A stretch of DNA of 64,000 nucleotides from Candidatus Harrisonbacteria bacterium (GTDB taxonomy: Bacteria; Patescibacteriota; Minisyncoccia; UBA6257; 02-FULL-45-10c), in NCBI GenBank assembly GCA_016214655.1, contig JACROC010000007.1:14785-78784 (forward strand). Direction: 5' to 3'. The position numbers and the translations under genes were made by a program. Shown here one piece after another: positions 37,729-57,395 of this stretch. How positions within the stretch are numbered: position 1 is the first letter of the stretch; every line of letters begins with the position of its first letter. Below the pieces are notes generated by a model. That model saw nothing but the letters and a program-made list of their open reading frames with translations. It did not search any database and was not told the DNA's origin.

Positions 37729-37743
37729 ATAAATTCAGTACGT

Positions 37744-37800: not shown

Positions 37801-37905
37801 CTAATAATTCGACCATTGTTTATTACTTATAAAGTTACTTTTAAGTATAACAAAATCTGTAATCTTTAAAAACAAAAACCGCTGGGCGAACCAGGCGGCA
37901 AGTGC

Positions 37906-38208: not shown

Positions 38209-38472
38209 CCTTCATCATTTTCTATTGAAATAATGCTACCTAATATATTAGTAAAAGTGTATCCGGATGTCAAATTTAAAATTCCCCCAAATAACAACTA
38301 AGCGAGGTTAGATTTTCCAAAGCTAAAATAAAACCAGCTTGATGCCTTCTGGAGCGAAGCCCGAGTCCGAAGGACGAGAGCGCGGAACGCGCATGGCGAG
38401 AGGGGTTGAGGAGCGAAATGACGAAATCGCCCGAGCGGAAGTGCTGTTGCCGTTTAAGAAAAGTTTTTCTCC

Positions 38473-39993: not shown

Positions 39994-40086
39994 ATATTCT
40001 TTTGTTCGCTAAGTATTTCATTATTTAATGAATTTATTAGGAACTTGGTTTTTAATTAATTCGATTTTCTATATTATAATTTAACT

Positions 40087-41637
40087 ATGATGAAGCGTCA
40101 AGCAATTTTGGTCATTCTGGATGGCTGGGGCGTCGGCAGAAAAGACGAAACTAACCCCATTTACATTCAAGGCACGCCGAACATAGACTACATCAAAAAT
40201 TATTTTCTGGTTGGCTCACTTCAGGCATCGGGCATCTCTGTCGGCCTGCCCTGGAACGAAGAGGGTAACAGCGAAGTCGGCCATTTGACGATCGGCGCCG
40301 GTAAAGTGCTCTATCAGCATTTTCCAAGAATAACCATGTCCATCCAAGACGGCAGCTTCGCCAAAAACAAAGTGTTCCTTGATGCATTTGAGCATGTCAA
40401 AAATAGCGGCGGCGCCTTAAATATCGCCGGCCTCCTGACTGAGGGAAATATTCACGCTTCTTTTGAGCACCTAGTCGCCCTTATTAAATTAGCTAAGGCA
40501 TACCAAGTTTCTAAAATCAATCTGCATATATTTTCGGATGGCAAAGACAGCGATCCCAAATCTTGTTTAAAAATTTTAAAAAGACTGGAGGCGGCGGCAG
40601 ATGGCGGCTGGCGAATTGGCAGCATATCCGGCCGGCATTTTTCCCTAGACCGGGATAATCACTGGGACAGAACTGAAAAAGCTTATCAAGCATTAATAGG
40701 CAACGCCCCAACCGCCAATACCGTGGAAGAAGTAATAATGAAGACTTATGAAAATAATTCCAATGACCAGCACGTGGAACCGCATGTGATAGATCCGGAT
40801 GCGGCCATTAAAGATAACGACGCCTTGCTTTTTATTGATTTCCGGGAAGACAGCGTCCGGCAAATTACCTCGTCTTTTGTTTTAAAAGAATTCTCCGAAT
40901 TCCCGGTTAAACAATTTTTTAATCTTTATATCGGCACCATGACCAGCTATATGGATAAATTCAATGTTCCGGTCGCCTACCCGCCGGAAAAAGTCGATAA
41001 TCCACTTGCCAAAGTCCTGGCAGACAACAGTAAATCACAACTGCATATTGCGGAAACCGAAAAATACGCTCACGTAACTTATTTTTTCAACGGATTAAAA
41101 GAACAGCAATTTCCTAATGAATACAGAGTTTTAATACCATCCCGAATGGTAGTAAGCCACGATGAAAAACCGGAAATGCAAGCGGCGGAAATTACCTCGC
41201 GGGTCATACAGGCAATTGAAGAAAAGGCATTTGATTTTATATTAGTTAATTACGCTAATGGGGATATGATAGCGCATACCGGCAATTACGAAGCGGCGAG
41301 GGTTGCAATAAAGACAGTTGATGATTCTCTTGGGGCGCTCATTCGCACCGCGCTCCAGAATAATGCGGTCTTAATCATTACCTCCGATCATGGCAATGCT
41401 GAATCAATGCTTAACCCGCGAACCGGCGAAGCCACTACTACCCATGATCCGAATCCAGTCCCGATCTATATTATCGGAAACGAGTTTGTAAAACAAAAAT
41501 CTCCCGGTGATATAGAAACTTCCGAAAGAGAAACGGCTGGAATTTTATCCGATGTCTCGCCAACTATTCTGGAAATCTTAGACATCCCAAAGCCGCTAGA
41601 AATGACCGGCCAAAGCCTGCTAAAAATTTTAAAATAA
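40087..41637 (+). CDS. gpmI: 2,3-bisphosphoglycerate-independent phosphoglycerate mutase
   Basis: 516 aa; N-terminal ILDGWG, C-terminal TSDHGNAE metal-site motifs. Confidence 0.85.
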   Translation: MMKRQAILVILDGWGVGRKDETNPIYIQGTPNIDYIKNYFLVGSLQASGISVGLPWNEEGNSEVGHLTIGAGKVLYQHFPRITMSIQDGSFAKNKVFLDAFEHVKNSGGALNIAGLLTEGNIHASFEHLVALIKLAKAYQVSKINLHIFSDGKDSDPKSCLKILKRLEAAADGGWRIGSISGRHFSLDRDNHWDRTEKAYQALIGNAPTANTVEEVIMKTYENNSNDQHVEPHVIDPDAAIKDNDALLFIDFREDSVRQITSSFVLKEFSEFPVKQFFNLYIGTMTSYMDKFNVPVAYPPEKVDNPLAKVLADNSKSQLHIAETEKYAHVTYFFNGLKEQQFPNEYRVLIPSRMVVSHDEKPEMQAAEITSRVIQAIEEKAFDFILVNYANGDMIAHTGNYEAARVAIKTVDDSLGALIRTALQNNAVLIITSDHGNAESMLNPRTGEATTTHDPNPVPIYIIGNEFVKQKSPGDIETSERETAGILSDVSPTILEILDIPKPLEMTGQSLLKILK

Positions 41638-41646
41638 GAAAACCGC

Positions 41647-41931
41647 TTAACGGCGGTTTTTATTTAATATCCCATCGGATTCAAGAGAAACTGCGAAATA
41701 CCAAAGATCAACAATTGTTATCATGTGTTTATCACCAACCCTTCGCCCTCTCAATTTCCGATTTCTTAAAGCGTGCAAAATTCTCTTTTCCGGGATTCCC
41801 GAAACAAAGGAGGCTTTACCGAGATCAACTTCCGGAAATGGCTCAACTCCGGCTTCTGCGAATTTCTTGGCAACATTATTTTCGGCCCGCATACCAATCT
41901 GATTATAAATATCGCCGCGAGTTCTTGACAT
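41647..41931 (-). CDS. hypothetical protein
   Basis: 94 aa. Confidence 0.4.
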   Translation of the reverse strand: MSRTRGDIYNQIGMRAENNVAKKFAEAGVEPFPEVDLGKASFVSGIPEKRILHALRNRKLRGRRVGDKHMITIVDLWYFAVSLESDGILNKNRR

Positions 41932-41970
41932 TGCTATCCCTTATCTCTATTTTGTGAGTAACTGAAATAT

Positions 41971-43248
41971 ATGATAGCTAATATTGTTACAAAAATCAAA
42001 AATGCCCCAAAAGATTCGGGTGTCTATATATTTTATTCTGGAAAAGAAGTTCTTTATATCGGGAAGGCTTCCAATCTGAAAAATCGTCTTCAAAGCTATC
42101 TGAAAATAACTGATTTTAAAACTGAGGCTCTGCATCGTGAAGCCAACAACTTAAAAATTTTTAAACTCAGCTCAAATATCGAAGCACTCATTACAGAGTC
42201 CCAGCTGATTAAAAATCTGAAACCGATCTACAATGTTCTCTGGCGCGATGATAAAAATTACTTTTATGTCGCTATCACCAAAGATAAATTTCCAAGAATA
42301 TTTTTATCTCATCAGCTCAATGAATATCCCGGCGCTAATTACATCGGGCCATTTACCGAAGGACGGGCAATTAAAGTAATTCTGCGCCTGCTTAGAAAAT
42401 TCTTTCCGTATTGCACCCACAATCAACACTTGCGACTTTGCCTCGACGCCCAAATCAACAACTGTCCCGGATACTGCTGCCAGAAAAATAACCAACAGCC
42501 GACAACTAACAACTTACACCTGATTAAAAAATATAATAAAAATATCCGAAAGATAAAAAATATTCTTACCGGCAAAAATAAAAATTTCATCCACCAACTT
42601 AAGGATCCGTATGAATTACTGGTCTTAGAAAAAATCTGGGCGCATGAACCATATCTCGAGGGTGGAGGGTTAAGGGTTAAGGGTTTAGAAGATAAAAACA
42701 GTAAAGAAAAAAACCTATATCCTAATCCCTATCCCCTAAACCCTAACAAGGTAGAATGCTACGATAACTCCCATCTCTCCGGCAAAGAAGCTGTGGGAGC
42801 GATGACTGCTTGGGTGAGACAAAAAAACGAAAAAACAGAAGAACAAAAGAACAAATGGGAAGCAGAAAAAAATATGTGGCGAAAATTTAAAATCAAAGGC
42901 AGTTATACAGAAGACGATCCGCGGATGATGGAAGAGGTCGTCTCTCGCCGGCTAAATCACCCGGAATGGCCATATCCAGACCTGATTATTATTGATGGAG
43001 GAATCACACAGTTTAATGCGGCTAAAAAAGCAATCCAAAGGTCAAATGTCAAAGGTCAGGCGTCAAATGTTATCAAAGTTATTTCTTTCGCTAAACCGCA
43101 GCAATTGATTTTCGGCTTAGAAAAAAATCCGATTCCGATTACCAAGCTTCCGGAAGAATTCCAAAAACTTATCGGAATGGCAATTCAAAATACCCATAAT
43201 TTCGCGATCCGCTACCACCGGAAAATTCGGTCACGCAACATGCTATAA
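41971..43248 (+). CDS. truncated UvrC-like GIY-YIG nuclease with low-complexity insert
   Basis: GVYIFYSGKEVLYIGKASNLKNRLQSY GIY-YIG; UvrC Cys cluster; C-terminal DNSH..IIDGGITQFNAAKKA endonuclease-like; no HhH tail; insert EGGGLRVKGLEDKNSKEKNLYPNPYPLNPNK encoded by TTAGGG-like repeats. Confidence 0.55.
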   Translation: MIANIVTKIKNAPKDSGVYIFYSGKEVLYIGKASNLKNRLQSYLKITDFKTEALHREANNLKIFKLSSNIEALITESQLIKNLKPIYNVLWRDDKNYFYVAITKDKFPRIFLSHQLNEYPGANYIGPFTEGRAIKVILRLLRKFFPYCTHNQHLRLCLDAQINNCPGYCCQKNNQQPTTNNLHLIKKYNKNIRKIKNILTGKNKNFIHQLKDPYELLVLEKIWAHEPYLEGGGLRVKGLEDKNSKEKNLYPNPYPLNPNKVECYDNSHLSGKEAVGAMTAWVRQKNEKTEEQKNKWEAEKNMWRKFKIKGSYTEDDPRMMEEVVSRRLNHPEWPYPDLIIIDGGITQFNAAKKAIQRSNVKGQASNVIKVISFAKPQQLIFGLEKNPIPITKLPEEFQKLIGMAIQNTHNFAIRYHRKIRSRNML

Positions 43249-43255
43249 TCAATTT

Positions 43256-43615
43256 ATGGGCTTTATTTCAAGAATTATCTTTTCTTTCTTTTCTAATCTT
43301 ATTGCGCTGGTAGTAGCCGGAAACTTCATACCCGGATTCGAATTAACTGATAATTTCGTGAATCTTTTAATTACGGCCGGTGTTTTTATGCTTATCAATA
43401 TTTACATCCGGCCATTGATAAAAATGATTCTGTCCCCGTTAGTGATTCTGACTCTCGGCCTATTTACCTTGGTTATTAATGCCGGGATGCTCTACCTCCT
43501 TGACATTCTCAGTGAGAATGTTACAATAACAGGAATTGAACCTCTTATATACGGAACTTTGCTTATGACGGGCGTAAATCTTTTACTCCATTTTTCGGCA
43601 AAATTCTTATCTTAA
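43256..43615 (+). CDS. DUF360/holin-family-4-like 4-TM membrane protein
   Basis: FMLINIYIRPLIKMILSPLVILTLGLFTLVINAGM pattern. Confidence 0.45.
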   Translation: MGFISRIIFSFFSNLIALVVAGNFIPGFELTDNFVNLLITAGVFMLINIYIRPLIKMILSPLVILTLGLFTLVINAGMLYLLDILSENVTITGIEPLIYGTLLMTGVNLLLHFSAKFLS

Positions 43616-43627
43616 TAACTAGCCATT

Positions 43628-43843
43628 ATGTATCTTCCAATTGCACAGGTAACAGTTTCAATTCTTTTAATAGTCTTAATACTGCTCCAAGAGCGGTCTT
43701 CTGGTTTATCCGGAGTTTTTGGGGGTGAAAGCGAGGGATCCTTTTATCACACCCGGCGAGGATTAGAAAAACTTATCTTCTGGGGCACAATTTTGTTATC
43801 AACGGCCTTTGCCGCCTTAGCTCTTCTTGACCTAATCTTATAA
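43628..43843 (+). CDS. secG: preprotein translocase subunit SecG
   Basis: 71 aa; LLQERSSGLSGVFGG Gly-rich loop between two TM helices. Confidence 0.6.
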   Translation: MYLPIAQVTVSILLIVLILLQERSSGLSGVFGGESEGSFYHTRRGLEKLIFWGTILLSTAFAALALLDLIL

Positions 43844-43916
43844 ACTTCAAGTAGGATGGATTTTGGCCTGCAAGAATCAGTTTCATTAGTAAGCGGCACA
43901 CTGCTTTTAATCTGAA

Positions 43917-45575
43917 ATGAATCGTCTATATCAAATTTTTAATAGTTTTACGAAAACCGAACGGTATATATTTTGGGCGGCATTTTCTATTTTTTTAGCC
44001 GCCAGTGCACTCTGGACCATCTTTACCATTCGGAATTCCACCGTAGAAGTTCCAGTCAGGAGCAGCCGTTATCAGGAGGGCGTTGTCGGCCAGCCCATTG
44101 CCATCAATCCGATACTAGCCGGAACTAATGATGTCGACCGCGATCTTATTGAGCTTTTATTCGACGGATTAATCAATCTTTCCGAGAACTACAAAGTCAG
44201 CGCCGACGGCCAAACTTGGAATGTAATCTTAAAACCGGACCTCCGCTGGAGCAACGGAAAATCGCTTACCAGCGACGATGTAATTTTCACCATTGATGCC
44301 ATACAAAATTCCGACAGCCGTTCGCCGCTATTTTTAACCTGGCAAGGAATAGTAGTAGACCGGATCAGCGAGCGAGAGGTTGAATTTACCCTTAGAACTC
44401 CGTATGCCTTTTTCCTAGATAACCTCAAAGATCTGAAAATTATTCCAAAGCATATTTTCGGAACCATACCGGTAGAAAACTTTCGGTTATCCAATTTTAA
44501 TCTTGAACCTACCGGCAATGGTCCGTATAAATATATCTCCTTTGAAAAGCGCAGTGATGGCTTTATAACTGATTATCTGTTGGCATCTAACGAGTATTTT
44601 ACGGGCGAAAAACCCTACATTAAAGAATTGACTGTCAGATTCTATCAAGACAGTAATCAGCTGCTTAAGGCCTTTAATCGCAAAAAGGTTGATGGTTTCG
44701 GCGGCCTGAATCCAAATAACCTCAAAGAATTAAAGCTGGGATATAAATTATTCGAAAAATCAATTCCGCAATATTATGCCATTTTCATCAACAAGAATAG
44801 CGCCCCCACTCTTGCTAACCAGAAAATTTTATCGGCGTTGAATTTAGCTACTGACAAACAAAAAATCGTCGATCAAATTTTCGGCAACAAAGCAACCGTG
44901 ATAAACGAACCAATTTTACCGATTATAAACGGTTACGAACTATCCGCGGATCCCGGCAATGAATTTTCTATCGAAAGAGCGGGTTCTCTATTAGATGAAG
45001 AGGGGTGGTTAAAAAATGAAAAAACTGGTGTCCGGGAGAAGAAAATCGGAAAACAACTGGCATCACTGGAGTATTCTATTGTTGTGCCGCAGATACCATT
45101 CCTTGTAGAAACTGTAAATATTATTAGAAGCGATTGGGAAAAAATAGGAATAAAATTAAACCCGATAATTTTAAACCCCGCTGATATCGCTAATGAAGTA
45201 ATAAAAACTAGAAATTACCAAATGATAATTTTCGGAAATATCTTAAGAAATAATCCGGATATTTTTTCCTTCTGGCATTCCTCGGAAAGATTTTATCCGG
45301 GCCTCAACTTGGCCCTCTACGACAATAAAAAGGTCGACGCCCTGCTGGAATCCATCCGGAAAAATCCGGATGAAAATTCCAGAAAGGATGATCTAGTTAA
45401 ATTGCAAAAATTAATCAGCGAGGATAAGCCGGCGATCTTTCTCTATTCGCCAGCCTATCTTTATGCGGGACCAAAAAATCTTGGGGGGGTTGAAGAAAAA
45501 ATCATTACTACCCCATCAAAGCGATTCCAAGACATCAACAAATGGTATCTAGAAACGCGGCGAGTCTTTAAATAA
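43917..45575 (+). CDS. ABC transporter substrate-binding protein, family 5 (peptide/nickel type)
   Basis: 552 aa, N-terminal TM anchor, SBP_bac_5-like length and composition. Confidence 0.65.
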   Translation: MNRLYQIFNSFTKTERYIFWAAFSIFLAASALWTIFTIRNSTVEVPVRSSRYQEGVVGQPIAINPILAGTNDVDRDLIELLFDGLINLSENYKVSADGQTWNVILKPDLRWSNGKSLTSDDVIFTIDAIQNSDSRSPLFLTWQGIVVDRISEREVEFTLRTPYAFFLDNLKDLKIIPKHIFGTIPVENFRLSNFNLEPTGNGPYKYISFEKRSDGFITDYLLASNEYFTGEKPYIKELTVRFYQDSNQLLKAFNRKKVDGFGGLNPNNLKELKLGYKLFEKSIPQYYAIFINKNSAPTLANQKILSALNLATDKQKIVDQIFGNKATVINEPILPIINGYELSADPGNEFSIERAGSLLDEEGWLKNEKTGVREKKIGKQLASLEYSIVVPQIPFLVETVNIIRSDWEKIGIKLNPIILNPADIANEVIKTRNYQMIIFGNILRNNPDIFSFWHSSERFYPGLNLALYDNKKVDALLESIRKNPDENSRKDDLVKLQKLISEDKPAIFLYSPAYLYAGPKNLGGVEEKIITTPSKRFQDINKWYLETRRVFK

Positions 45576-45596
45576 AAATCATTACCAATAATATTT

Positions 45597-45680
45597 GCCC
45601 CCGTGGCGGAACTGGCAGACGTACACGCTTCAGGTGCGTGCGGCCGAAAGGCCATAGAGGTTCAAATCCTCTCGGGGGCA
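45597..45680 (+). tRNA. tRNA-Leu (CAG)
   Basis: GCCCCCG acceptor, anticodon stem CACGC/GCGTG with loop TTCAGGT, long variable arm CGGCCGAAAGGCCAT, T-loop TTCAAAT. Confidence 0.8.
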
Positions 45681-45689
45681 CGAAAATTA

Positions 45690-45813: not shown

Positions 45814-47553
45814 ATGATACGAGCACCAAAGAGAATATTTAAACCGGCAGTCCGACGGACCGCTGAAAGAAAAAAATCATCTGAAGAAAAAGAGGTGGTT
45901 TTAAGATTTGTCCCGCTAGGCGGATTGGAAGAGATCGGCCGCAACTGCGCCTTTTTTGAATACGGAGACGAAATAGTTATGATTGACGCCGGAATTCAAT
46001 TCCCGGAAGAAGAAACCCCTGGAATTGATTACATCATACCGAATGTTACCTACCTGGAACCAAAAAATAAAAATATCCGGGGAATCATTCTGACCCACGG
46101 CCATTATGACCACATCCATTCACTGCCATACATAATAGAAAAAATCGGGAATCCTCTTATTTATTGCGTAGAAATTACCAAAGCGCTGATTGAAAAACGC
46201 TTTTCTGAATTCCCAAATCTTCCAAAACCAAAATTTCAAATCGTAAAAGAGGGCGACCGGCTTGCCATCTCTGAACATTTTACCGCTGAATTCTTCTATG
46301 TGGACCACACCATTCCGGACGCAGTTGGTTTTGTGCTGGAAACTCCGGCTGGCAATATGGCGCATTTTGGCGATTTCCGGGTTGAATATGACAGAAAAAA
46401 TAATCCAATAAACACGGAAGTATTCGCCCGGCTGGCCGATAAAAAAATCCATACCGCCTTCTTAGACAGTACCAATGCGGATTTTGAGGGCCACTCCATC
46501 TCTGAAGAAGTAGTCGCCGACGAACTGGAAAAATTGATTGTCGCCGCCAAAGGAAGAATAATCCTCACTACTTTCGCCTCCCTACTCACTCGCGTCGCGG
46601 AAATAATCAAATTAGCTGAAAAACATGGAAGAAAAGTTGCGCCTAACGGAAGATCAATGAAAGATAATATCCAAATCGCCCAAAGACTAGGCCATATTAA
46701 AGCTAAGAAGGGGACTTTTATCGCCGTAGAAGAGATACATCAACATCCCGACAATAAGGTCATGATTCTTTCCACCGGCGGACAAGGAGAACCCAATGCC
46801 GGCTTAACCAAGATGGCCAATGGCGAACACCGCCATATCCATTTTAAAAAATCAGATACGGTTATCTTTTCTTCTTCAGTCGTTCCCGGCAACGAACGGA
46901 GTGTCCAACTTTTACAAGACAATATCGCGCGGCAGGTAGATGAAACTTATAATTCTAAATTGCTGGATATTCACTCCAGCGGCCACAGTCTCGCAGACGA
47001 CATCGAGCTGGTCTTAAAATTAGTAAAGCCGAAGTTTATGGTCCCGATCCACGCCTATTATTTCAAGTTAAAAGCGGCAACCAAGATTGCCCACAAACTG
47101 GGTATGCCTAAAGAAAATGCGGTTATATTGGATAATGGGCAAGTTGCAATCTTAACTAAGGACAATCTTATTCCTACCCAAGAAAAAGTTCCCACTAATT
47201 ACGTAATGGTTGACGGCCTTGGTATTGGTGACGTTGAAGAGGTGGTTCTCCGTGACCGCCGCTTGCTGGCGGAAGAAGGAATGGTCGTAGTTATATCTAC
47301 AATTGACCGCGAAACCGGCCGCTTACTAAAAACTCCGGACATCATTTCCCGCGGCTTTATTTACCTCAAAGAAAATAAAGAGTTATTAGACGACGTTCGT
47401 GGAAAGTTAAAATCTCTTTTAATCCGTATCCCCCGCCACACCCACCCGGAGCCGGATTATATCAAAACCTTAATCCGCGACCAAATCGGACAACTCTTGT
47501 ATAATAAGACTAGACGGAGACCAATGGTGCTTCCGGTACTTATAGAAATCTAA
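45814..47553 (+). CDS. rnj: ribonuclease J
   Basis: MBL motif ILTHGHYDH, beta-CASP and C-terminal domain; 579 aa. Confidence 0.85.
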   Translation: MIRAPKRIFKPAVRRTAERKKSSEEKEVVLRFVPLGGLEEIGRNCAFFEYGDEIVMIDAGIQFPEEETPGIDYIIPNVTYLEPKNKNIRGIILTHGHYDHIHSLPYIIEKIGNPLIYCVEITKALIEKRFSEFPNLPKPKFQIVKEGDRLAISEHFTAEFFYVDHTIPDAVGFVLETPAGNMAHFGDFRVEYDRKNNPINTEVFARLADKKIHTAFLDSTNADFEGHSISEEVVADELEKLIVAAKGRIILTTFASLLTRVAEIIKLAEKHGRKVAPNGRSMKDNIQIAQRLGHIKAKKGTFIAVEEIHQHPDNKVMILSTGGQGEPNAGLTKMANGEHRHIHFKKSDTVIFSSSVVPGNERSVQLLQDNIARQVDETYNSKLLDIHSSGHSLADDIELVLKLVKPKFMVPIHAYYFKLKAATKIAHKLGMPKENAVILDNGQVAILTKDNLIPTQEKVPTNYVMVDGLGIGDVEEVVLRDRRLLAEEGMVVVISTIDRETGRLLKTPDIISRGFIYLKENKELLDDVRGKLKSLLIRIPRHTHPEPDYIKTLIRDQIGQLLYNKTRRRPMVLPVLIEI

Positions 47554-48527
47554 TGTCAAAACCAATTCTAATTTCTGGCACGCAACCAGATGGCAGATTG
47601 CATTTAGGCAACTATCTCGGCGCCATCAAAAATTGGGTTGAGCTACAAAATTCAGAAAAATATGAATGTTATTTTATAATTGTTGATTATCACTCATTAA
47701 CGGTTGATTTTAATCCGACTGAAAAAAAAGAGGAGGTTCTGGGGGTTGTCAGGGCATATCTAGCGGCCGGGATTGATCCGAAAAAATCAAAAATCTTTGT
47801 CCAATCACGCATTCCTGAGTGTACGGAATTAGCCTGGATTTTAAACACTATTACGCCATTGGGGGAATTAGAAAGAATGACTCAATTTAAAGAAAAGTCC
47901 GAGAATAAAGAATCGGTTAACACGGGATTACTTACCTATCCCATTTTAATGGCGGCGGATATTCTCCTTTATGATGCACGATTCGTGCCTGTGGGCGAAG
48001 ACCAATTGCAACACTTAGAACTCACAAGAACGCTGGCAAGGAAATTCAATAATAAATTCGGAAAAACTTTCATTGAACCTCGGGCAATTCTATCCAAAGC
48101 CTCACGGGTTATGAGCTTAGATAATCCCAGCAAAAAGATGTCTAAATCGCATCCGGAAACTTGCCTATTTCTAGATGATCCCCCGAAAGATATAGAATTC
48201 AAGATCAAGCGCGCAGTCACTGATTCCGGTTCAGAAGTAAAATTTGATTTAGAAAAAAAGCCGGGCGTTTCCAATTTACTTCTTATTTATGAAGCATTGT
48301 CTGGAATAACAATTCCAAAACTAGAAAAGAAATACGCTGGCAAGGGATATGGCCAGTTTAAATCTAATCTTGCCGAAGTTGCCATCAAAACCTTGGCGAC
48401 CTTCCGCGAATCAAAATTCAGCGACAAAAAATTAAAATCTATTCTCACAAATGGAGCGGAAAAAGCTAAAAAAATTGCCTCAAGCAAAATGCAAGTAATC
48501 AAAAATAGATTAGGCTTACGTGTCTAA
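47553..48527 (+). CDS. trpS: tryptophan--tRNA ligase
   Basis: class I motifs GNYLG (HIGH-like) and KMSKS; 324 aa. Confidence 0.85.
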   Translation: MSKPILISGTQPDGRLHLGNYLGAIKNWVELQNSEKYECYFIIVDYHSLTVDFNPTEKKEEVLGVVRAYLAAGIDPKKSKIFVQSRIPECTELAWILNTITPLGELERMTQFKEKSENKESVNTGLLTYPILMAADILLYDARFVPVGEDQLQHLELTRTLARKFNNKFGKTFIEPRAILSKASRVMSLDNPSKKMSKSHPETCLFLDDPPKDIEFKIKRAVTDSGSEVKFDLEKKPGVSNLLLIYEALSGITIPKLEKKYAGKGYGQFKSNLAEVAIKTLATFRESKFSDKKLKSILTNGAEKAKKIASSKMQVIKNRLGLRV

Positions 48528-48672: not shown

Positions 48673-48705
48673 AAAAATATCCTGCCAGGCAGGATATTTT
48701 TAGTC
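48673..48705. terminator. bidirectional palindromic terminator
   Basis: aaaaatatcctgccaggcaggatattttt. Confidence 0.5.
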
Positions 48706-48951
48706 TTCTTCATAGAATTCCATTTTCCCTCCATCCACCCGCTCAATAGCTTTTCCTTCTTTCTCATACCACTTCTTTCGCTCAGCCTCACTTTTAAATT
48801 CATCGATTTTAAATTTGGTGCCAGGAGCCTCTCCTTTTGGTGGATGATAACGAATCGCATAAACTTTTAGCTTAGGCAATTTTTCCTCCAGGCCCTGTTC
48901 CCGAGAAAGTCTGTCAAATTTTTCTGATCTTTTAAATGATTTATCGATCAT
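48700..48951 (-). CDS. hypothetical protein
   Basis: 83 aa charged. Confidence 0.4.
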   Translation of the reverse strand: MIDKSFKRSEKFDRLSREQGLEEKLPKLKVYAIRYHPPKGEAPGTKFKIDEFKSEAERKKWYEKEGKAIERVDGGKMEFYEED

Positions 48952-48960: not shown

Positions 48961-51900
48961 TTACAACTTTCTTACGCCGATCCAAATCGGCTGATCTTCT
49001 AATTTTGTATTAAGTTCGGCATCAAATTTGGCAGATCTTTTAAATTCAACTGATCCAGCACCGACGTCTTTTCCTAAAAATTTACTATGGCGCCCCCAAA
49101 TAAACATAAGTTCTCTGGGTGCCTCAATCATTAAATGAATTTTATCCTTAGGCACATAATTGGCATCATGCCGCAATCCCTGCACCGCCCGGACTAATTC
49201 CCTGATTAGCCCCTCCTCTTTTAATTCCGGCGTTATTTTAAGATCTAAATCTATGTCACCGGCCAATTCCTGATTCCATTTCACTTCTTTTACATTCACT
49301 TCATCTTTCAAAATCTCCAATAACTCTGCATCTCGTACGTCCAACTTTTTACTTTTAACTTCCAGCGCTTGAAGCGGTTGACGCACCTTAACTCCTTTTT
49401 CTGCACGCAAAGCCAATGCCAAACTCGATAAACGCCGGATCTCTTCCATTTTTTCCAAAAGCGAATGATCAATAATTTTTTTATCCGCCTCCGGCCAGTT
49501 TTGCAAATGCACTGAATTATGAATCATGAATTTCGAATCGTGGGATTTTTTATTTCCTTTATTCGTAATTCCTAATTCATTATTCAGCGATAGAAAAAGT
49601 GCATCAGCGAAAAATGGCGTAAAAGGCGCAATCAATTTGCTCAACTCCACCAAACAAAGATTAAGAACAGCCGATGCTCCTTTAAAATCGTTTTGATCCT
49701 CCGGTCTTTGTAACCGAGTACGCGAACGCCGGATATACCATCGGGATAAATCATCGACAAATACCTCCAGCGTCTTCCCAGCGGCACCAACGTCATATTT
49801 TTCTAAACCGTCCGTAACTTGCTGAATAGTTTGATTTAACCTTGCTAAAACCCATTTATCCAAAATGCTTTTAGGGTTTAGGGTGGAGGGTTTAGGGTTT
49901 AGTTTTTTTTCTGCATACGTATCAAAAAATACAAATGAATTATAAATGATCATTATGAATTTCCGCAGCATCTTTCCAAGATCCGCCTCGTCAAACTTTT
50001 TTGGTTCACTCGGAGGATTCACTGTATAGAAATACCAGCGAACAGTATCGGCGCCATATTTATTCATCATATCCCAAGGGCTTACCACATTCCCCTTTGA
50101 TTTAGACATTTTCTGGCCATTTTTATCCAGAACCAAGCCAAGCGTAATTACATTTTTATACGGATTTTCTAAGCCAAGCGCAGTCGCAACCGCCAACAAC
50201 GTATAAAACCATCCGCGCGTCTGATCAATTCCTTCACTGATATAATCAGCCGGGAAGTCAGTACATTCTTTTAGGGTCGTAGGTCGTAGGTCGTAGGTCA
50301 TAGGTTCCTTCGTGCAAGCGAATGGATAATGATCCTGAGCAAAGGGCATTGCGCCGGAATCAAACCAGACATCTGCCACCTCCTTAACCCTTTCCATTCT
50401 ATTTTCGCATTTTTTACAGCGGAGAAAAACGCTGTCTATATAAGGACGGTGTAAATCTAATTCCGCATTAGAGTTGTACGGCCAATTATGAAATTCTGCT
50501 TTGCGGACTTCTCCGTTATTTTTCGGATAATCAGACTTCAAAATTTCCTCATTAGACAATCCGCCTAAAGCGCCGGCTAAAACCCAGAGCGGATCTCCAT
50601 GACTGACGATCAAAATATTTTTATCTTTACACTTGAAATTAATATCCCCTACTGCCGCAAACATCCTTTTTTTTGCATCGGAAAGATTTTCGCCTCCTGG
50701 AGGAGTTTTAGTAAATTCTTTTATGGAATCTCCAAAAAATTCTTTATGTTCTTTAATTTTTCTCCAATTAAAAATGCCGCAGTTTAATTCACCTAGCCGC
50801 TCATCGGTAATGATTTCTGCCTTAGTACCTTTAGCCACGATTTTCGCAGTCTGCTTGGTCCGTCTATATGGAGAGGTCACAATTAAATCTAATTTTTCCT
50901 TGCCAAGCATTTTTTTAATATTATGGGCGGCAGTTTCCGCGTCCTTCTTTCCTTTTTCGGTAAGTTTAGAAATTTGCTTTCCTTTCTCTGGTCCGGAAGC
51001 AATTAAATCATTCAAATTATGTTCAGCCTCACCGTGACGCAACAAGAAAAAATTATTCCGTGCATAAGCTAGATTATCCAGATCTCGAAGGCTGCCTATA
51101 ACTTCCAGATGATCGCACTTTACGCATTTCCAGATCGGCAGCGGAGTTCCCCAATAACGATCGCGGGAAATTGCCCAGTCTTTGATTTCCCGTAGCCATT
51201 CTCCAAATCTTCCCTCTTTAATATGTTCCGGAACCCAATTAATCTTTCCGTTATTTTTCAAAAGCTGATCTCGCAGACCGCTCATTTCTATAAACCAAGA
51301 AAAACGGGCATAATATAAAATCGTAGTTCCGCAACGCCAGCAAAACGGATAATCGTGCTCAATAACTCCGCTTTTATATAAATTTTTCCGCTTTTCTAAA
51401 TCTTTCAAAATATCCTCGTCTGCTTTTTTCGCAAATTTTCCTTGCCCAGGCAAACCTTTCCGTACAATGCCTTTTTCATCAATAGTAATAGGTATCTGCC
51501 CGACTAACTCTTTTTGAAAACTTTTGACTAAATTCATGTCGTCTTCACCGAACGCCGGAGCAATATGAACCATCCCGGTTCCCTCTTCAGTGGACACGAA
51601 ATCGGCACCATAAACTTTAAAAAATTTATTATTCTTCAGCCACGGACCACTAACTTTGAATAAAGGTTTATAATTTAAACCGACAAGCTTTTTCCCGGAA
51701 ACCTTTTCAACGACCTCGACTTCCGCGCCGCCATCTCCCGGAGGTGCGCTAAATGACCAGATGAAGTCCTTACCTACTTTGTATTTGGTATAACTTAATT
51801 CCGGATTTACTGCGATCGCCACATTTGAAGGCAAAGTCCACGGAGTAGTAGTCCAAACCAATAAATGTTCTTTAGCTTTTATTCTTGAGCTTTTAACTTT

Positions 51901-52539
51901 GAGCTCAAACTTTACATAGATTGAGGGATCCTTAACTTTCTTATATACTCCCGGCTGGCCCATTTCATGGCTGGAAAGCGGCGTCTGGCAGCGCGGGCAA
52001 TAAGGAACGATTTTAAATGATTGCCTTAGGAGACTGCGGTTAGCAATTTGTTTAAATACCCACCACAAACTTTCTATATAATCATTTTTATAAGTGACAT
52101 AAGGATTTTTTAAATCCAGCCAAAACCCAATGCGATCAGTAAATTTTTCCCATTCATCCTGATATTTCCACACTGAAGCTTTTGCTTTTTCATTAAATTC
52201 TGCAATGCCAAACTTTTCTATGTCTTGCTTATTCTTTAAGCCAAGTTCTTTTTCCACCTCAATTTCAACCGGCAAGCCATGAGTATCCCAGCCAGCTTTC
52301 CGGCGAACGAAATATCCCTGCATAGTTTTGAAACGTGGAATCACATCCTTATAGGCACGGCCCTCTACATGACCCATATGCGGCCGGCCATTTGCAGTCG
52401 GCGGTCCCTCAAAAAAGCGGTATTTTTTCGCACCCTCACGCAACTTTTGCGCCTTCTCGAAAATCCGGTTTTCTTTCCAAAACTTAAGCACTTTTTCCTC
52501 TATCTCCGGCAAGTTAAGTTGTTTTAATCCCCGCAACAT
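48961..52539 (-). CDS. ileS: isoleucine--tRNA ligase with inserted histidine-phosphatase (PGAM-like) domain
   Basis: HMGH and KMSKS class I motifs and editing domain; about 230-aa insert LLRHGEAEHN..SPYRRTKQTA..SHGDPLWVL (RHG, R, H catalytic residues of branch-1 histidine phosphatases) before KMSKS; extra low-complexity segments. Confidence 0.85.
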   Translation of the reverse strand: MLRGLKQLNLPEIEEKVLKFWKENRIFEKAQKLREGAKKYRFFEGPPTANGRPHMGHVEGRAYKDVIPRFKTMQGYFVRRKAGWDTHGLPVEIEVEKELGLKNKQDIEKFGIAEFNEKAKASVWKYQDEWEKFTDRIGFWLDLKNPYVTYKNDYIESLWWVFKQIANRSLLRQSFKIVPYCPRCQTPLSSHEMGQPGVYKKVKDPSIYVKFELKVKSSRIKAKEHLLVWTTTPWTLPSNVAIAVNPELSYTKYKVGKDFIWSFSAPPGDGGAEVEVVEKVSGKKLVGLNYKPLFKVSGPWLKNNKFFKVYGADFVSTEEGTGMVHIAPAFGEDDMNLVKSFQKELVGQIPITIDEKGIVRKGLPGQGKFAKKADEDILKDLEKRKNLYKSGVIEHDYPFCWRCGTTILYYARFSWFIEMSGLRDQLLKNNGKINWVPEHIKEGRFGEWLREIKDWAISRDRYWGTPLPIWKCVKCDHLEVIGSLRDLDNLAYARNNFFLLRHGEAEHNLNDLIASGPEKGKQISKLTEKGKKDAETAAHNIKKMLGKEKLDLIVTSPYRRTKQTAKIVAKGTKAEIITDERLGELNCGIFNWRKIKEHKEFFGDSIKEFTKTPPGGENLSDAKKRMFAAVGDINFKCKDKNILIVSHGDPLWVLAGALGGLSNEEILKSDYPKNNGEVRKAEFHNWPYNSNAELDLHRPYIDSVFLRCKKCENRMERVKEVADVWFDSGAMPFAQDHYPFACTKEPMTYDLRPTTLKECTDFPADYISEGIDQTRGWFYTLLAVATALGLENPYKNVITLGLVLDKNGQKMSKSKGNVVSPWDMMNKYGADTVRWYFYTVNPPSEPKKFDEADLGKMLRKFIMIIYNSFVFFDTYAEKKLNPKPSTLNPKSILDKWVLARLNQTIQQVTDGLEKYDVGAAGKTLEVFVDDLSRWYIRRSRTRLQRPEDQNDFKGASAVLNLCLVELSKLIAPFTPFFADALFLSLNNELGITNKGNKKSHDSKFMIHNSVHLQNWPEADKKIIDHSLLEKMEEIRRLSSLALALRAEKGVKVRQPLQALEVKSKKLDVRDAELLEILKDEVNVKEVKWNQELAGDIDLDLKITPELKEEGLIRELVRAVQGLRHDANYVPKDKIHLMIEAPRELMFIWGRHSKFLGKDVGAGSVEFKRSAKFDAELNTKLEDQPIWIGVRKL

Positions 52540-52587: not shown

Positions 52588-52893
52588 TCATTCAGAGGAG
52601 CGTTTATGATTTTTTTCCAAATGGCGGCCATAATCTGTATGCTTATGAATTGATTGAAGATATCTATAATATCTTTCAGATTCCTTTAATAAAGAAATAT
52701 AATGTCTTAGTCTTCCAACTTCTTCACGAAGAGCGTTGAGTCCCCTTGGTCTCGGCTTCTTTAAAATTTTTTTTAAGCCTATCTCTGTTAACCAATGGGC
52801 TAAGGCAATCTTCAATCTTGAAAACCTCACCTTATTTTTTAAGTAATAATCTCTACACTGCGCGTCATTAGGAATTCGGATCATGGTTACCAA
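52588..52893 (-). CDS. hypothetical basic protein
   Basis: 101 aa. Confidence 0.4.
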   Translation of the reverse strand: MVTMIRIPNDAQCRDYYLKNKVRFSRLKIALAHWLTEIGLKKILKKPRPRGLNALREEVGRLRHYISLLKESERYYRYLQSIHKHTDYGRHLEKNHKRSSE

Positions 52894-52973
52894 AATTTAT
52901 TCATCAAATAACTAAAAAGAATATATCATTTCAAAATTAATTAAGCAATCTTAAAAATCAAACAAAAATCGCT

Positions 52974-53393
52974 CTAACTGAGCGATTTAGTCTTAACTAA
53001 AAAAACTTGTATTTTATTATTTTCGAACGAACCAAACATTTTCCGATAAAAGAAAGTCCCGGCCACATCCGCCGCAATATCGCCCCAAGAAATAAATATG
53101 GGTCTGGCAAAAGAAACGCACAGCCCAACCCAGGGACTTAATAAAAATTCTTCTGCTGCCTCCCAGCTAAGCCCTACAAGAAAAGATATCAAGAGAAATG
53201 CCAGCCAGCTCCTGATATTTAAAAAATGAGCGGCTAAAGCTCCAATAAAATAACCGCCGGCAAGATGGAATAGTTTATCAACGCTCCATCTGTCCACGAC
53301 GACTGCCAATTGCGAATTGTGAACTACTAAATATGCAAGATACAAGGATAGAAAACCGATACTGATGGTCTTTAAATCCTTCAAAGCAGCCAA
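52974..53393 (-). CDS. VanZ-like membrane protein
   Basis: 139 aa, 4 TM helices. Confidence 0.4.
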   Translation of the reverse strand: MAALKDLKTISIGFLSLYLAYLVVHNSQLAVVVDRWSVDKLFHLAGGYFIGALAAHFLNIRSWLAFLLISFLVGLSWEAAEEFLLSPWVGLCVSFARPIFISWGDIAADVAGTFFYRKMFGSFENNKIQVFLVKTKSLS

Positions 53394-53725
53394 ATCTCCT
53401 CCCGCGTTGCTTTGATATTTCTCAGTAAATGCCGGAAGCCGAATTCCGAATTTAAAAAATCCATCCTTAGCGATTGAAGCGGGTCATGCTGGCATTCATT
53501 GCAAGTACAAGGACTATTCAACCAAACCGCTGCCGACTCCTGATCCCTAAAATCTGCCAACAATTCAGCTACTATCTTACAAAAACGTGCATCCCTCTCC
53601 TGTTCCCAAATCCCAGCCTTCATTCCCGCAAAATCCGACTTAAACTTGACGAGCATCTCCACGATCATACTCTGTCGTTCCTGAAGGCTTCCGGGCATCT
53701 GTTTAGAATTTTCAATAAAGCTCAA
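53381..53725 (-). CDS. hypothetical protein
   Basis: 114 aa. Confidence 0.4.
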   Translation of the reverse strand: MSFIENSKQMPGSLQERQSMIVEMLVKFKSDFAGMKAGIWEQERDARFCKIVAELLADFRDQESAAVWLNSPCTCNECQHDPLQSLRMDFLNSEFGFRHLLRNIKATREEIWLL

Positions 53726-53757: not shown

Positions 53758-55434
53758 TTACATTTTCTTCGGCTTGCCCATACCCAAAATCTCTAAGCCG
53801 CTTCCCAGTACCACCCCAAAAGCTTCTGTTAAAGCTACTTTATACGGGGAATATTTATCATCTGGATTAACAATTTTAACTTTTGCGTAGTAAGAATTAA
53901 AAACTCTGGCTAATTCGGTCAAATAGAAAACCATATAATTAGGCGCGTATTCTTTACCAGCCCTCTCTAAAATCTCTGGGAAGCGGCATAGCATCCGCTC
54001 AACTTCGCTAACCTCGGCAGGTAAAAGCTTAAGCGATGGCCGCACGCCCTCTTCTTTTGCTTTGGTTAAAACTGAATTAGCGCGGGTATAGGCATATTGA
54101 AGATAAGGACCAGAATCACCTTCAAAAGAAATTGATTTTTCAAAATCAAAAATAATGTCCCCTCCAACGGCCTGCTTTAAAATAGAATATTTTATGGCCG
54201 CGATTGACACCGCCTCTTCAATTTCCTTCTTCTCTTCATTACTCAATTCCCGGTCTTTGATTTTTTTCCGCACCAACCATTGAACATCTTCAATTAATGA
54301 TTCGGCAGTAATAACATCGCCAGTCCTGGAAGACATTTTACCGCTCGGCGACCGCAGCATACCATGAGAAAGATGCGTAGTCCTTTCCGCAAGCTTGGGA
54401 AACATAATTTCCATAACCTTTAAAAGAACTTTAAAATAGTCATTTACCTCGTTACCCGTAATAACAATGGATTTATCATAAGAATATTTTTTATATTTTA
54501 ACTCAGCCAACCCTAACTCTTTGGCCTCATAAGTCGGAAGGCCTTCAGAATTTATAAAAACCCGGGTATGTAATCCGTACTTTTCTCCTTTAAAAACTGT
54601 AGCGCCCTGGCTTTTTTCAAAAACTCCCCTCTTTAATCCTTTTTCAACTATTTTTTTACCAAATTTTCCGGTTTCGCTTTCAAAAAAATAATAATTGAAT
54701 TTTGTGCCAAGCCTTCTATAGATATTTTCAAAATGATCTAGAGATAAAGCCTTGCCGCTATCATAGATTTTGTTAATATTCTTATCGTTTCGATCATATA
54801 TTTTTTTATTAATTTCGTTTATTTCCTTTTTAACTCGTTCGTCGGATTCATAAACCCGCGACCCGGCCGCATATGCTTTGGCTAAATCTGCCATTGAATC
54901 AATTTTCTTAAATCCTAAATGATCAATTCCCCAAACCGCTTTTGCCACATGCATACCAACATCCCCCTGATAACAAGCCCTTTTAACTTTAGCCCCGTTC
55001 CATTCAATAATCCGCGATAATGCCTCGCCGATAGAATTACTCATTAAATGCCCGATATGGAACTCTTTAAAAGGATTTGGGTCGGTGTATTCAATAATCG
55101 TCTTCTGTCCTTTTAGATTATTATTTCTTCCATATTTATTTTTATTTTTTAAAATTACGGCTAATTCTTTTTGGAATAATTTCGGCTTCAGCCAAAAATT
55201 CACAAAACCCGGCGCCACCGCTTCCACTTTCACAAATTTACTTGACGCTTGACGCTTGACGCTTGACGCTATTTCTTTAGCAATCTCAAAAGGCGGCTTT
55301 TTTAACAACGGCGCAAGTTTAAAAGCCACATTCGTGGAATAATGTCCGAATTCCTCTTTTTCTGAAGCGCTTATATCAAATTCCGTATCTGCTCCTATAA
55401 CCTTTTTAATCTGTATCTCTAAATTTTCTACCAT
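53758..55434 (-). CDS. argS: arginine--tRNA ligase
   Basis: class I HIGH region HIGHLMS and C-terminal anticodon-binding domain; insert SSVKRQASSK encoded by CTTGACG x4. Confidence 0.85.
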   Translation of the reverse strand: MVENLEIQIKKVIGADTEFDISASEKEEFGHYSTNVAFKLAPLLKKPPFEIAKEIASSVKRQASSKFVKVEAVAPGFVNFWLKPKLFQKELAVILKNKNKYGRNNNLKGQKTIIEYTDPNPFKEFHIGHLMSNSIGEALSRIIEWNGAKVKRACYQGDVGMHVAKAVWGIDHLGFKKIDSMADLAKAYAAGSRVYESDERVKKEINEINKKIYDRNDKNINKIYDSGKALSLDHFENIYRRLGTKFNYYFFESETGKFGKKIVEKGLKRGVFEKSQGATVFKGEKYGLHTRVFINSEGLPTYEAKELGLAELKYKKYSYDKSIVITGNEVNDYFKVLLKVMEIMFPKLAERTTHLSHGMLRSPSGKMSSRTGDVITAESLIEDVQWLVRKKIKDRELSNEEKKEIEEAVSIAAIKYSILKQAVGGDIIFDFEKSISFEGDSGPYLQYAYTRANSVLTKAKEEGVRPSLKLLPAEVSEVERMLCRFPEILERAGKEYAPNYMVFYLTELARVFNSYYAKVKIVNPDDKYSPYKVALTEAFGVVLGSGLEILGMGKPKKM

Positions 55435-56491: not shown

Positions 56492-56935
56492 ATGAAATAT
56501 CTGTCAGAAAATAGAAAAGCGCAGTTTGATTACGAAATTCTGGAAACCTATGAAGCGGGCCTGGTTTTGACTGGCCAAGAAGTGAAATCAATCAAAGCCG
56601 GGCATGCAAATCTGACTGGTTCATATGTCATCATAAAACCTAATGGGGCTTTCTTAATCAATGCCCAGATACCGCCATATCAGCCTAAAAATTCGCCGCC
56701 AGATTATGAACCATCAAGAACGCGGCAATTGCTTTTGCGCAAAGAAGAATTGAAATATCTCCTAGGTAAAGCTAAGGAAGGAAATTTGACTATGGTGCCA
56801 CTTTCGTTGTATAATAAAGGCCGCCGACTAAAGATCTCCATCGGCCTAGCTCGGTACAAGAAAAAACAGGACAAACGTGAGACAATTAAGAAAAGAGAGT
56901 TTGAGAGAGAGGCGCGCAGAACGTTGAAAGAATAA
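56492..56935 (+). CDS. smpB: SsrA-binding protein SmpB
   Basis: NRKAQFDYEILETYEAGLVLTGQEVKSI N-terminus typical of SmpB. Confidence 0.85.
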   Translation: MKYLSENRKAQFDYEILETYEAGLVLTGQEVKSIKAGHANLTGSYVIIKPNGAFLINAQIPPYQPKNSPPDYEPSRTRQLLLRKEELKYLLGKAKEGNLTMVPLSLYNKGRRLKISIGLARYKKKQDKRETIKKREFEREARRTLKE

Positions 56936-56939: not shown

Positions 56940-57309
56940 GGGGATGAAAAGCTTCGACAATTTATTTTCTGTCAGGTTCGCAAGCTGAGCTGAATTAACT
57001 CGTAAAACTAATTCAAAATTATAAGTGCAAACTTATTCAATCGTCAGCCAGCTTACGCTTTAGCGTAATTTATCCCGGCCTTAGCGTCGGGACTGGCCAT
57101 CGATCAGCCAAAGCTTGATAGGCTGCCAATCGGTGTCATACATCAAGCTCTGCCTTGATAAACCGAGTATCAAAGCGAATTGCAATCGGTAAAGAGAATA
57201 GCGTATTTTGTTAGATCTAAACGTTATTCTCTATAAATTTAATCTAACTAAGCTTGTAGAAAATTTGGCGGGTATAATTTGGACGCGGATGCAATTTCCG
57301 CCATCTCCA
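56940..57309 (+). ncRNA. ssrA: tmRNA (SsrA)
   Basis: 5' GGGGATGAAAAGCTTCGAC (consensus GGGG.UGA..GGAUUCGAC); 3' GGACGCGGATGCAATTTCCGCCATCTCCAC (E. coli GGACGCGGGUUCAACUCCCGCCAGCUCCACCA); acceptor GGGGATG pairs with CATCTCC; tag ORF 57027-57068 GCA.. = ANLFNRQPAYALA stop. Confidence 0.7.
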
Positions 57310-57395
57310 CAAATAAAAAAGACGGTCCCATAACCGCCCATAACTTTTCTGCCTGACTATCAAACTAAAATTTACCTCTACAAAAATCATTAGAA

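Follow-up and report, generated by a model that had tools for sequence, protein, structure and literature searches.

The stretch analysed here (the window) comprises 64,000 nucleotides of a Candidatus Harrisonbacteria genome (assembly GCA_016214655.1, contig JACROC010000007.1, positions 14,785 to 78,784 of the forward strand). It contains an ileS gene for isoleucyl-tRNA synthetase (IleRS) within which a histidine phosphatase domain is embedded. The open reading frame (ORF) runs uninterrupted from its ATG to its stop codon and encodes 1192 amino acids (aa). A protein 100% identical to its product is deposited at NCBI from a Candidatus Harrisonbacteria metagenome-assembled genome (MAG; Patescibacteria group, then Parcubacteria group), where it lies on a 200-kb contig. 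The features of the gene are as follows, with the basis of each assignment in parentheses.

48961..52539, minus strand: ileS, type-2 IleRS with inserted putative phosphatase, 1192 aa (ORF, TIGR00392, Pfam, PDB relatives)
51079..52539, minus strand: N-terminal part of IleRS, aa 1-487, with the first Rossmann half, CP1 editing domain, CP2 and the first half of the Zn knuckle (aligns with Thermus thermophilus IleRS 5-477)
52369..52380, minus strand: HIGH signature in canonical form, H54-M-G-H57 (motif search)
51115..51126, minus strand: first CxxC of the Zn knuckle, C472/C475, equivalent to T. thermophilus C461/C464 (motif search, 1ILE alignment)
50461..51078, minus strand: inserted segment, aa 488-693 (about 206 aa), histidine phosphatase with short linkers (homologue breaks, 1ILE alignment, CxxC spacing)
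50488..51048, minus strand: Pfam His_Phos_1 match, aa 498-684 (E=1.1e-30, 107.2 bits)
51031..51039, minus strand: RHG motif with R501, nucleophile H502 and G503 (conservation)
50860..50862, minus strand: R560, second phosphate-binding Arg (conservation)
50788..50790, minus strand: E584, putative proton donor (aligns with the IEID Glu of PspA 4IJ5)
50599..50601, minus strand: H647, second catalytic His, in SHGDPLW (conservation)
48961..50460, minus strand: C-terminal part of IleRS, aa 694-1192, with LDLHRPYID, WFDSG, DQTRGWF, KMSKS, the anticodon-binding domain and DUF5915 (aligns with T. thermophilus 488-821; Pfam)
50407..50418, minus strand: second CxxC of the Zn knuckle, C708/C711, equivalent to T. 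thermophilus C502/C504 (1ILE alignment)
50098..50112, minus strand: KMSKS loop, aa 810-814 (motif search)

The host synthetase and the insertion site

The protein scores 870.9 bits against the NCBIfam IleRS equivalog TIGR00392 (cutoff 621.4), in a match that the insert splits in two, and the next best NCBIfam models are those of MupA/MupB-type IleRS2 (746 bits for the MupA/MupB-like one). Pfam recognizes tRNA-synt_1 (E=1e-115, also in two pieces), His_Phos_1, Anticodon_1 and, at aa 1075-1191, DUF5915, the C-terminal domain of type-2 enzymes. Solved type-2 structures (1ILE of T. thermophilus and PmIleRS2, 8C8V) are matched with 750-797 bits, as against 297-320 bits for the type-1 structures 8C9E and 1FFY, and Foldseek places IleRS2 structures first for the full-length model. 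Over the body the protein is 37% identical to 1ILE and 32% to PmIleRS2, with target-normalised template modelling (TM) scores of 0.82-0.92 to 1ILE and 8C8V. It shares with the IleRS2 of T. thermophilus, Priestia megaterium and the MupA/MupB-like group the HIGH and KMSKS signatures, the CP1 motifs, the Zn knuckle and DUF5915. The editing motifs of CP1 are complete (WTTTPWTLP at aa 229, GTGMVHIAP at 320 and GEDD at 331), WFDSG and DQTRGWF are found at aa 725 and 772, and the K, M, S and K of KMSKS are invariant or almost so among 120 orthologues. Judged by these features, the enzyme is an intact type-2 IleRS and isoleucylation activity is predicted.

Regarding the HIGH signature, a swapped form (G/A-x-H-H) was observed in 96 of the 120 closest orthologues and in 57 of 80 genome loci, the present gene having the canonical HMGH. 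The swapped form in IleRS2 has been tied to mupirocin hyper-resistance, in a study in which Patescibacteria are not mentioned (Brkic et al. 2023, PMC10485003). The occurrence of both forms inside one IleRS clade implies repeated switching.

The original prediction had placed an insert of about 230 residues between the editing-domain region and the KMSKS half. The insert and its general location hold, but the segment is shorter and its site can be given more precisely. Homologues without it align in two pieces, breaking at query residues 487-492 and 690-695, and in 1ILE residues 5-477 align with query residues 5-488 and residues 488-821 with 694-1050. The breaks and the 1ILE alignment thus define an insert of about 206 aa (488-693), which takes the place of a loop of about 10 residues (T. 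thermophilus 478-487). This loop connects the two CxxC halves of the connective-peptide Zn knuckle, directly before the WFDSG strand with which the chain re-enters the Rossmann fold, and the motif WKCVKCDHLEVIGSLRDL (aa 470-487) stands just ahead of the insert. The connective peptides of class Ia synthetases are termed CP-core, CP1, CP2 and CP3 (PMC11685878); the insertion site, in the last such element, would be CP3 by position. The tolerance of this loop to an insertion of 200 aa may be of use for engineering.

The spacing of the CxxC pair separates the two kinds of IleRS: 31-45 residues without the insert (n=56 relatives, with two outliers of 55 and 69) vs 203-264 with it in divergent representatives and 223-240 in the 120 closest homologues. 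In the latter the second CxxC is present in 120/120 sequences, and the first is less well kept (C472 in 110/120, C475 in 95/120). A similar decay of the first CxxC is seen in relatives without the insert, and Zn binding at this knuckle may be optional in this IleRS clade.

The inserted histidine phosphatase domain

The assignment of the insert to the histidine phosphatase superfamily, on which the original prediction depended, is borne out by profile, by sequence search of the PDB and by fold. His_Phos_1 (PF00300) is matched with 107.2 bits (E=1.1e-30; gathering cutoff 21.7) over profile positions 2-182 of 194, and the closest solved relatives are compact phosphatases of about 200 aa, namely PhoE (1H2E/1EBB) and PspA (4IJ5/4IJ6; phmmer E=9e-12 to 4IJ5). 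The riboflavin-pathway HFP 9MMH, CobC and a glucosyl-3-PGA phosphatase are also matched. An AlphaFold2 model of the insert alone (predicted local distance difference test, pLDDT, 88) is closest in Foldseek to PhoE 1H2E/1EBB (E=1e-13, TM 0.74-0.75, 28% identity). In the full-length model (mean pLDDT 87, predicted TM score 0.81) the insert and its linkers reach a pLDDT of 92-97, values above 90 that suggest a fixed orientation and rigid docking on the IleRS.

The motifs named in the prediction are all present, HMGH and KMSKS are intact in a continuous frame, and the phosphatase motifs lie at aa 499-508 (LLRHGEAEHN), 556-564 (SPYRRTKQT) and 646-654 (SHGDPLWVL). Its assignment of the catalytic Arg to SPYRR is correct insofar as R560 is meant, which is invariant; the preceding R559 is variable. 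To this set the acidic residue E584 can be added. R501, H502, R560 and H647 are conserved in 120/120 close orthologues, and position 584 is occupied by Glu in 117 and by Asp in 3. In divergent representatives the Arg and His of RHG are retained in 74-75 of 75 sequences, R560 in 73/75 and H647 in 74/75, so that all five catalytic residues are at least 95% conserved. This conservation shows a complete phosphatase catalytic set under purifying selection, and the insert is best understood as an active phosphomonoesterase, presumably working via a phospho-His502 intermediate.

It could be argued that the fold serves as a non-catalytic scaffold, providing an additional tRNA-binding or stabilising surface that braces or replaces the Zn knuckle. 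The partly degenerate first CxxC of insert-bearing enzymes and the predicted rigid docking would fit such a role. However, the cysteines have degenerated equally in IleRS without the insert, the five catalytic residues are kept at 95-100% while identity across the domain falls to about 31%, and the stand-alone form of the protein described below keeps the catalytic set as well. We therefore consider a purely structural role very improbable.

The domain belongs to none of the characterised families whose models were applied. Identity with dPGM, the phosphoglycerate mutase (PGAM) after which the superfamily is often named, was rejected by NF038349 (78.8 bits vs a cutoff of 225), NF002901 (65.5 vs 261) and NF002339 (49.3 vs 316). 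The domain is also about 200 aa long, as in phosphatases, vs about 240 aa in mutases, and it reads HGDP at the second His, where we take mutases to read HGNS. PspA (NF045917, 61.9 bits vs 350) and CobC (TIGR03162, 71.6 vs 162.9) were rejected in the same way, and the cutoff of NF011580 was also missed (50.1 bits vs 250). Since all characterised equivalog cutoffs are missed, the domain is no mutase and forms a branch-1 histidine phosphatase subfamily of its own. It shares fold, catalytic machinery and length (about 200 aa) with PhoE (YhfR, Geobacillus stearothermophilus) and PspA (Hydrogenobacter thermophilus). These are free-standing, mildly acidic metabolite phosphatases, whereas the present subfamily resides in or beside IleRS, carries a signature made of an Asn and HGDPLW, and in its stand-alone form has an isoelectric point (pI) of about 9.8. 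Within the window, no member of the phosphatase family was found besides the ileS ORF.

Both partners are ordinary when taken separately, the host being an IleRS2 and the guest a His_Phos_1 domain; it is their combination that appears undescribed in the literature searched. None of the solved or described IleRS carries an extension of about 206 residues in the 478-487 loop. Surveys of IleRS evolution refer only to the INS element in ARD2 and to C-terminal remodelling, with no mention of a phosphatase or of Patescibacteria (PMC10485003; bioRxiv 10.64898/2026.02.03.703510). In the literature searched, including papers on IleRS evolution and structure and on the aminoacyl-tRNA synthetases (aaRS) of the candidate phyla radiation (CPR), a phosphatase is described neither in IleRS nor in any CPR aaRS. 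Public sequences carry automatic Pfam labels, but their names go no further than 'class I tRNA ligase family protein' or 'histidine phosphatase family protein'. That IleRS can host an accessory enzyme is already evident from NF040702 ('ileS_w_GNAT'), a catalogued IleRS with an extra enzymatic domain. In that case the domain is a GNAT and not a phosphatase, and the present protein is not a member (285.1 bits vs a cutoff of 1999).

Distribution, stand-alone form and other architectures

PF00300 is found in all 120 best database homologues (100% to 54% identity; NCBI, JGI, ENA and Logan assemblies). Of the 150 best representatives of clusters at 50% identity, 93 carry the insert, the most distant of them with about 37% overall identity. 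A pattern scan of GTDB, with one genome per species, revealed at least 314 species whose genome stretches encode a relative of the insert, a lower bound because the two peptide patterns used, built on an alignment of closer inserts, are restrictive. Eighty of these stretches (L001-L080) were kept for inspection, and in 77 of them the match lies inside an IleRS-sized ORF. All 80 come from CPR/Parcubacteria-type genomes, which are MAGs apart from the complete 689-kb genome of a Nealsonbacteria member (L079). They include Harrison-, Colwell-, Lipton-, Brenner-, Jorgensen-, Niyogi-, Azam-, Wolfe-, Nealson-, Uhr- and Doudnabacteria as well as Paceibacter and Tyrphobacter. Many labels of third-party annotation MAGs ('uncultured Candidatus Saccharibacteria', in one case 'Gammaproteobacteria') are probably generic. 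The architecture had been called unusual, which is true of aaRS in general and of the literature searched; in nature it is common among Parcubacteria-type IleRS.

These counts also bear on whether a phosphatase gene was placed inside ileS by a chimeric or mis-joined contig, which the original prediction had named as a possible objection. The architecture is odd and MAG assemblies can be chimeric. Nevertheless, the same in-frame arrangement recurs in 120/120 closest homologues and in 77/80 GTDB loci, L079 included; the GC content across the insert (0.39-0.41) equals that of the flanks, with no break in composition; and insert and host diverge together. An assembly artefact is thus excluded by conservation across independent assemblies, and we give this explanation practically no weight. 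With IleRS on both sides of the insert, alignment to IleRS2 structures and recurrence in hundreds of independent assemblies, the reading as a domain insertion, not a gene fusion or misassembly, is upheld.

Among 120 close orthologues, mean identity to the query is 54% for the insert and 58-68% for the synthetase parts. Pairwise divergences of insert and body are correlated (r=0.68), the insert evolving 1.36 times faster. These data show that the predicted phosphatase has been inherited together with its host IleRS across a large part of the Parcubacteria. Its presence is phylogenetically clustered yet patchy, with 23 Fitch changes vs 42.7 +/- 3 in a permutation null, as counted on a neighbour-joining tree built without the insert from saturated data, a method that is weak at such depth. 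A single ancient gain defining a clean clade was not supported, given the 23 state changes and the existence of IleRS that lack the insert, yet are 68% identical in body to insert-bearing ones (P0160 and P0241). The P0160 locus reads argS-ileS-recO and lacks a phosphatase, argS and ileS being 66 nt apart, and no phosphatase was found within 5 kb of the P0241 ileS. The absence of a copy from the locus in some close relatives indicates an accessory and not a core part of the synthetase. On this genomic evidence the putative phosphatase is a dedicated but dispensable partner of IleRS.

In the remaining three of the 80 loci, a stand-alone protein of 189-191 aa, 41-46% identical to the insert, replaces the embedded domain. 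In two of them (L060 and L074) it is encoded directly upstream of a complete ileS without the insert (about 960 aa), on the same strand, at distances of 4 and 1 nt respectively, with argS just before it; in the third (L059) argS and the phosphatase gene are followed by the contig end. At E<=1e-10 the L060 protein has 621 relatives, of which the 120 listed contain PF00300 only and are nearly all about 190 aa long; the few named ones among them are Patescibacteria/Parcubacteria entries ('histidine phosphatase family protein' or 'PhoE'). A further six members (52-58% identity to the L060 query) all lie in the order smpB (divergent)/argS/His_Phos/ileS/recO, next to an ileS without the insert (946-977 aa, in one case split by a frameshift). 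The stand-alone gene adjoins ileS on its upstream side in 9/9 contexts, the intergenic distance being -4 to +41 nt. At locus L096 (4640-7568) the ileS that follows the stand-alone phosphatase gene is called as two genes (100 and 886 aa), probably owing to a frameshift or sequencing error.

The IleRS partners of the stand-alone protein are of two subtypes, 48-49% identical to the body of the present enzyme (with WFDSG) and 36% identical (with PWLDAG and EMHKS). The ends of the stand-alone proteins match the boundaries of the insert (MNNxYFxxRHGE ... GExxK). The catalytic R, H, R and H are 100% conserved in the stand-alone family and the acid position is always D or E, so that the embedded and stand-alone sets are alike despite about 31% identity in the domain. 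The two forms also share the Asn six residues before the Arg of RHG, and the HGDPLW motif. In a tree whose stand-alone sample was biased to the kin of a single query, the stand-alone proteins form one clade nested within the embedded diversity (27/30 bootstraps), and identity in the domain does not follow identity in the host (r 0.01-0.31).

The stand-alone proteins are strongly basic (pI 9.84 +/- 0.45, net charge of +14 to +27 on about 190 aa). Their charge density equals that of SmpB from the same loci and is far above that of the neighbouring ArgRS, IleRS and RecO; embedded domains have a mean pI of 7.7 and solved relatives one of 5.9-6.5. The partner IleRS is not acidic, which makes it unlikely that the charge serves docking.

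The window holds the same block as the split loci in reverse orientation, with smpB and tmRNA, argS and ileS, the phosphatase being inside ileS and not before it. The other members of the block are:

53758..55434, minus strand: argS, upstream neighbour in the smpB/argS/(phosphatase)/ileS block (Pfam tRNA-synt_1d, DALR_1 and Arg_tRNA_synt_N)
56492..56935, plus strand: smpB, divergent from argS, synteny anchor (Pfam SmpB, E=2.7e-49)
56940-57312, plus strand: tmRNA, directly downstream of smpB (RF00023, 125 bits)

Between argS and ileS, at 52588-53725 on the minus strand, there are three small ORFs (101, 139 and 114 aa) without Pfam match, which occupy the position of the stand-alone phosphatase in the split loci. 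An ORF of 83 aa, also without Pfam match, lies just downstream of ileS (48700-48951, minus strand).

Less common arrangements were found among the relatives. In one IleRS (P0175) the phosphatase is present only at a second site (aa 732-897), after KMSKS (654) and before Anticodon_1 (918), and the canonical loop is short; this site is located between the KMSKS/stem-contact region and the anticodon-binding domain. Another (P0213) has one phosphatase at each site (aa 494-671 and 868-1039), and a third (P0233) has two in tandem in the canonical loop (aa 537-701 and 755-936). The two insertion sites, the tandem copies and the adjacent gene together show that this subfamily of predicted phosphatases is genetically dedicated to IleRS.

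This dedication bears on whether the protein is simply a housekeeping small-molecule phosphatase that rides with ileS for constitutive expression in a minimal genome and has no link to charging, its substrate being phosphoserine, a sugar phosphate, phosphoglycerate or a nucleotide such as 2'/3'-AMP. The closest solved relatives listed above are in keeping with such a role, as are the repeated loss of the domain and the fact that most enzymes of the superfamily act on small molecules. A neutral hitch-hiker, however, would be expected on varied hosts, whereas here one partner is linked in at least three ways (two sites and an adjacent gene) and across two IleRS subtypes. Furthermore, a domain placed in an internal loop of an essential enzyme comes at a higher cost than a gene next to it in an operon, the stand-alone proteins match an RNA-binding protein in basicity, and the characterised equivalogs (dPGM, CobC and PspA) all failed. 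We regard this explanation as the chief rival, possible but improbable.

One further variant (P0242) combines a phosphatase in the canonical loop with a P-loop (GACGAGKT) kinase-like domain (aa 737-869), inserted in the next loop, between WFESG and GLDQTRGWF. Taken alone, the kinase-like domain matches AAA_18 (32.5 bits), AAA_33 (27.4) and Zeta_toxin (25.5), each barely above the Pfam cutoff, and it can also be described as CPT-like; in the PDB it matches APS kinase, shikimate kinase and Pnkp1 weakly (E 0.02-0.06). A kinase-bearing IleRS as a recurrent architecture was rejected, as a set of 5.8 billion proteins yielded two distant stand-alone kinases in unrelated contexts. The classical fusion of a P-loop kinase with a branch-1 histidine phosphatase is 6-phosphofructo-2-kinase/fructose-2,6-bisphosphatase, from which P0242 differs in domain order, host and kinase family, Pfam 6PF2K not being among its matches.

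Another conceivable role is that of a protein phosphatase guarding the synthetase, which would remove phosphate from Ser, Thr or His of IleRS, ArgRS or other translation proteins, for example reversing the inactivation of aaRS active sites by a HipA-like toxin kinase. The superfamily does include protein phosphatases (PGAM5, Sts-1 and SixA), and GltX and TrpS are targets of HipA-family kinases. The tethering or co-expression of the domain with an aaRS and the Zeta-toxin-like match of P0242 point in the same direction. Against it, neither kinase nor toxin genes recur in a conserved manner at the split loci or in the window block examined, and in sequence and fold the domain is nearest to small-molecule phosphatases and not to SixA or PGAM5; moreover, we know of no evidence that CPR IleRS is phosphorylated. 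Such a guarding role seems to us quite unlikely, and it and the purely structural role are both less likely than action on a metabolite.

Proposed role and further observations

The explanation that we consider best, and probably correct, is that of an accessory phosphatase dedicated to IleRS and active on or beside it. Bound there, it would act as a phosphomonoesterase on a nucleic acid or nucleotide whose phosphorylated end it meets during charging, for example a tRNA with a 2'- or 3'-phosphate on its terminal ribose. Its removal would restore a chargeable acceptor end, coupling a 'healing' of the substrate to aminoacylation. The identity of the substrate is a much more tentative matter. The likeliest candidate that we can name, still put forward with low confidence, is an RNA or nucleotide end bearing a phosphate, for example a tRNA with a 2'- or 3'-phosphate on A76. 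The narrower proposal of tRNA 3'-end repair, in which a phosphate left by nuclease damage, toxin action or processing would be stripped from the terminal adenosine on the synthetase itself, is more doubtful again.

A nucleotide or tRNA substrate is mildly favoured by the three-way coupling with ileS and the basic stand-alone form. That the domain has been tethered repeatedly and independently to a single enzyme that handles tRNA points to a substrate or complex common to both, and the free form is basic like an RNA-binding protein, whereas the tethered one, able to borrow the tRNA affinity of IleRS, is not. Insertions in the connective peptide are situated on the acceptor-arm side of class I enzymes, which also favours an RNA end. 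Finally, the pairing of kinase and phosphatase in P0242 is as in end-healing enzymes. Pnkp systems (T4 Pnkp, Pnkp/Hen1 and Pnkp1-Rnl-Hen1), which remove 2',3'-cyclic or 3'-phosphates from broken tRNA, nevertheless provide a functional analogy only. The likeness is confined to P0242, with its phosphatase and P-loop kinase-like domain, and the match to Pnkp1 4XRP is non-significant (E=0.06). The known healing phosphatases are HAD-type or calcineurin-type metallophosphoesterases, and no ligase or Hen1 is present at the ileS locus.

Several points weigh against the role preferred here. The nine cases of adjacency represent one syntenic block and not independent events, a high pI is common in the proteomes of low-GC CPR bacteria, and the kinase variant is a single sequence. 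Cells evidently get by after repeated loss of the phosphatase. The closest solved relatives are phosphatases of small molecules or metabolites, no member of the superfamily acting on RNA ends was found in the literature searched, and to our knowledge no PGAM-family RNA-end phosphatase has been described. Nothing, moreover, explains why IleRS, and perhaps the neighbouring ArgRS, should be served over all other synthetases.

Aminoacyl-tRNA synthetases are among the most conserved enzymes, and their catalytic add-ons, editing domains for example, each revealed a new layer of quality control in translation. Here a second, unrelated hydrolytic site appears to be maintained in or beside IleRS across hundreds of ultra-small, host-dependent Patescibacteria, whose genomes rarely keep dispensable parts. 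Should the substrate be tRNA or a nucleotide, a new charging-coupled step and a new activity of the PGAM superfamily would follow. If tRNA 3'-end repair were true, this would be the first PGAM RNA-end phosphatase and the first aaRS with built-in tRNA repair, and a widespread one. If a metabolite is the substrate, the nesting of one enzyme in a loop of another, essential one would still be striking. In any case, metabolic reconstructions of CPR genomes could wrongly count the embedded domain as a phosphoglycerate mutase.

Elsewhere in the window, a group I intron (RF00028, 92 bits) was found at 33267-33513 on the plus strand, in a tRNA gene missed by ARAGORN. Its exons lie at about 33245-33266 and 33514-33556, and the joined anticodon loop (CU-GAA-GA) identifies tRNA-Phe(GAA). 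The intron is located between U33 and G34, the 5' exon ending in U and the intron in G. A tRNA-Ile as its host was considered and ruled out, the host being tRNA-Phe. Among the six tRNA genes found by ARAGORN (30321-45681), only tRNA-Gly(UCC) appears to encode the 3' CCA, which implies dependence on a CCA-adding enzyme for most tRNAs. Lastly, the genes of RNase J (579 aa) and TrpRS (324 aa), at 45814-48527 on the plus strand, overlap by one base (stop/start at 47553), an arrangement suggesting that an RNA-decay enzyme and an aaRS are translationally coupled.

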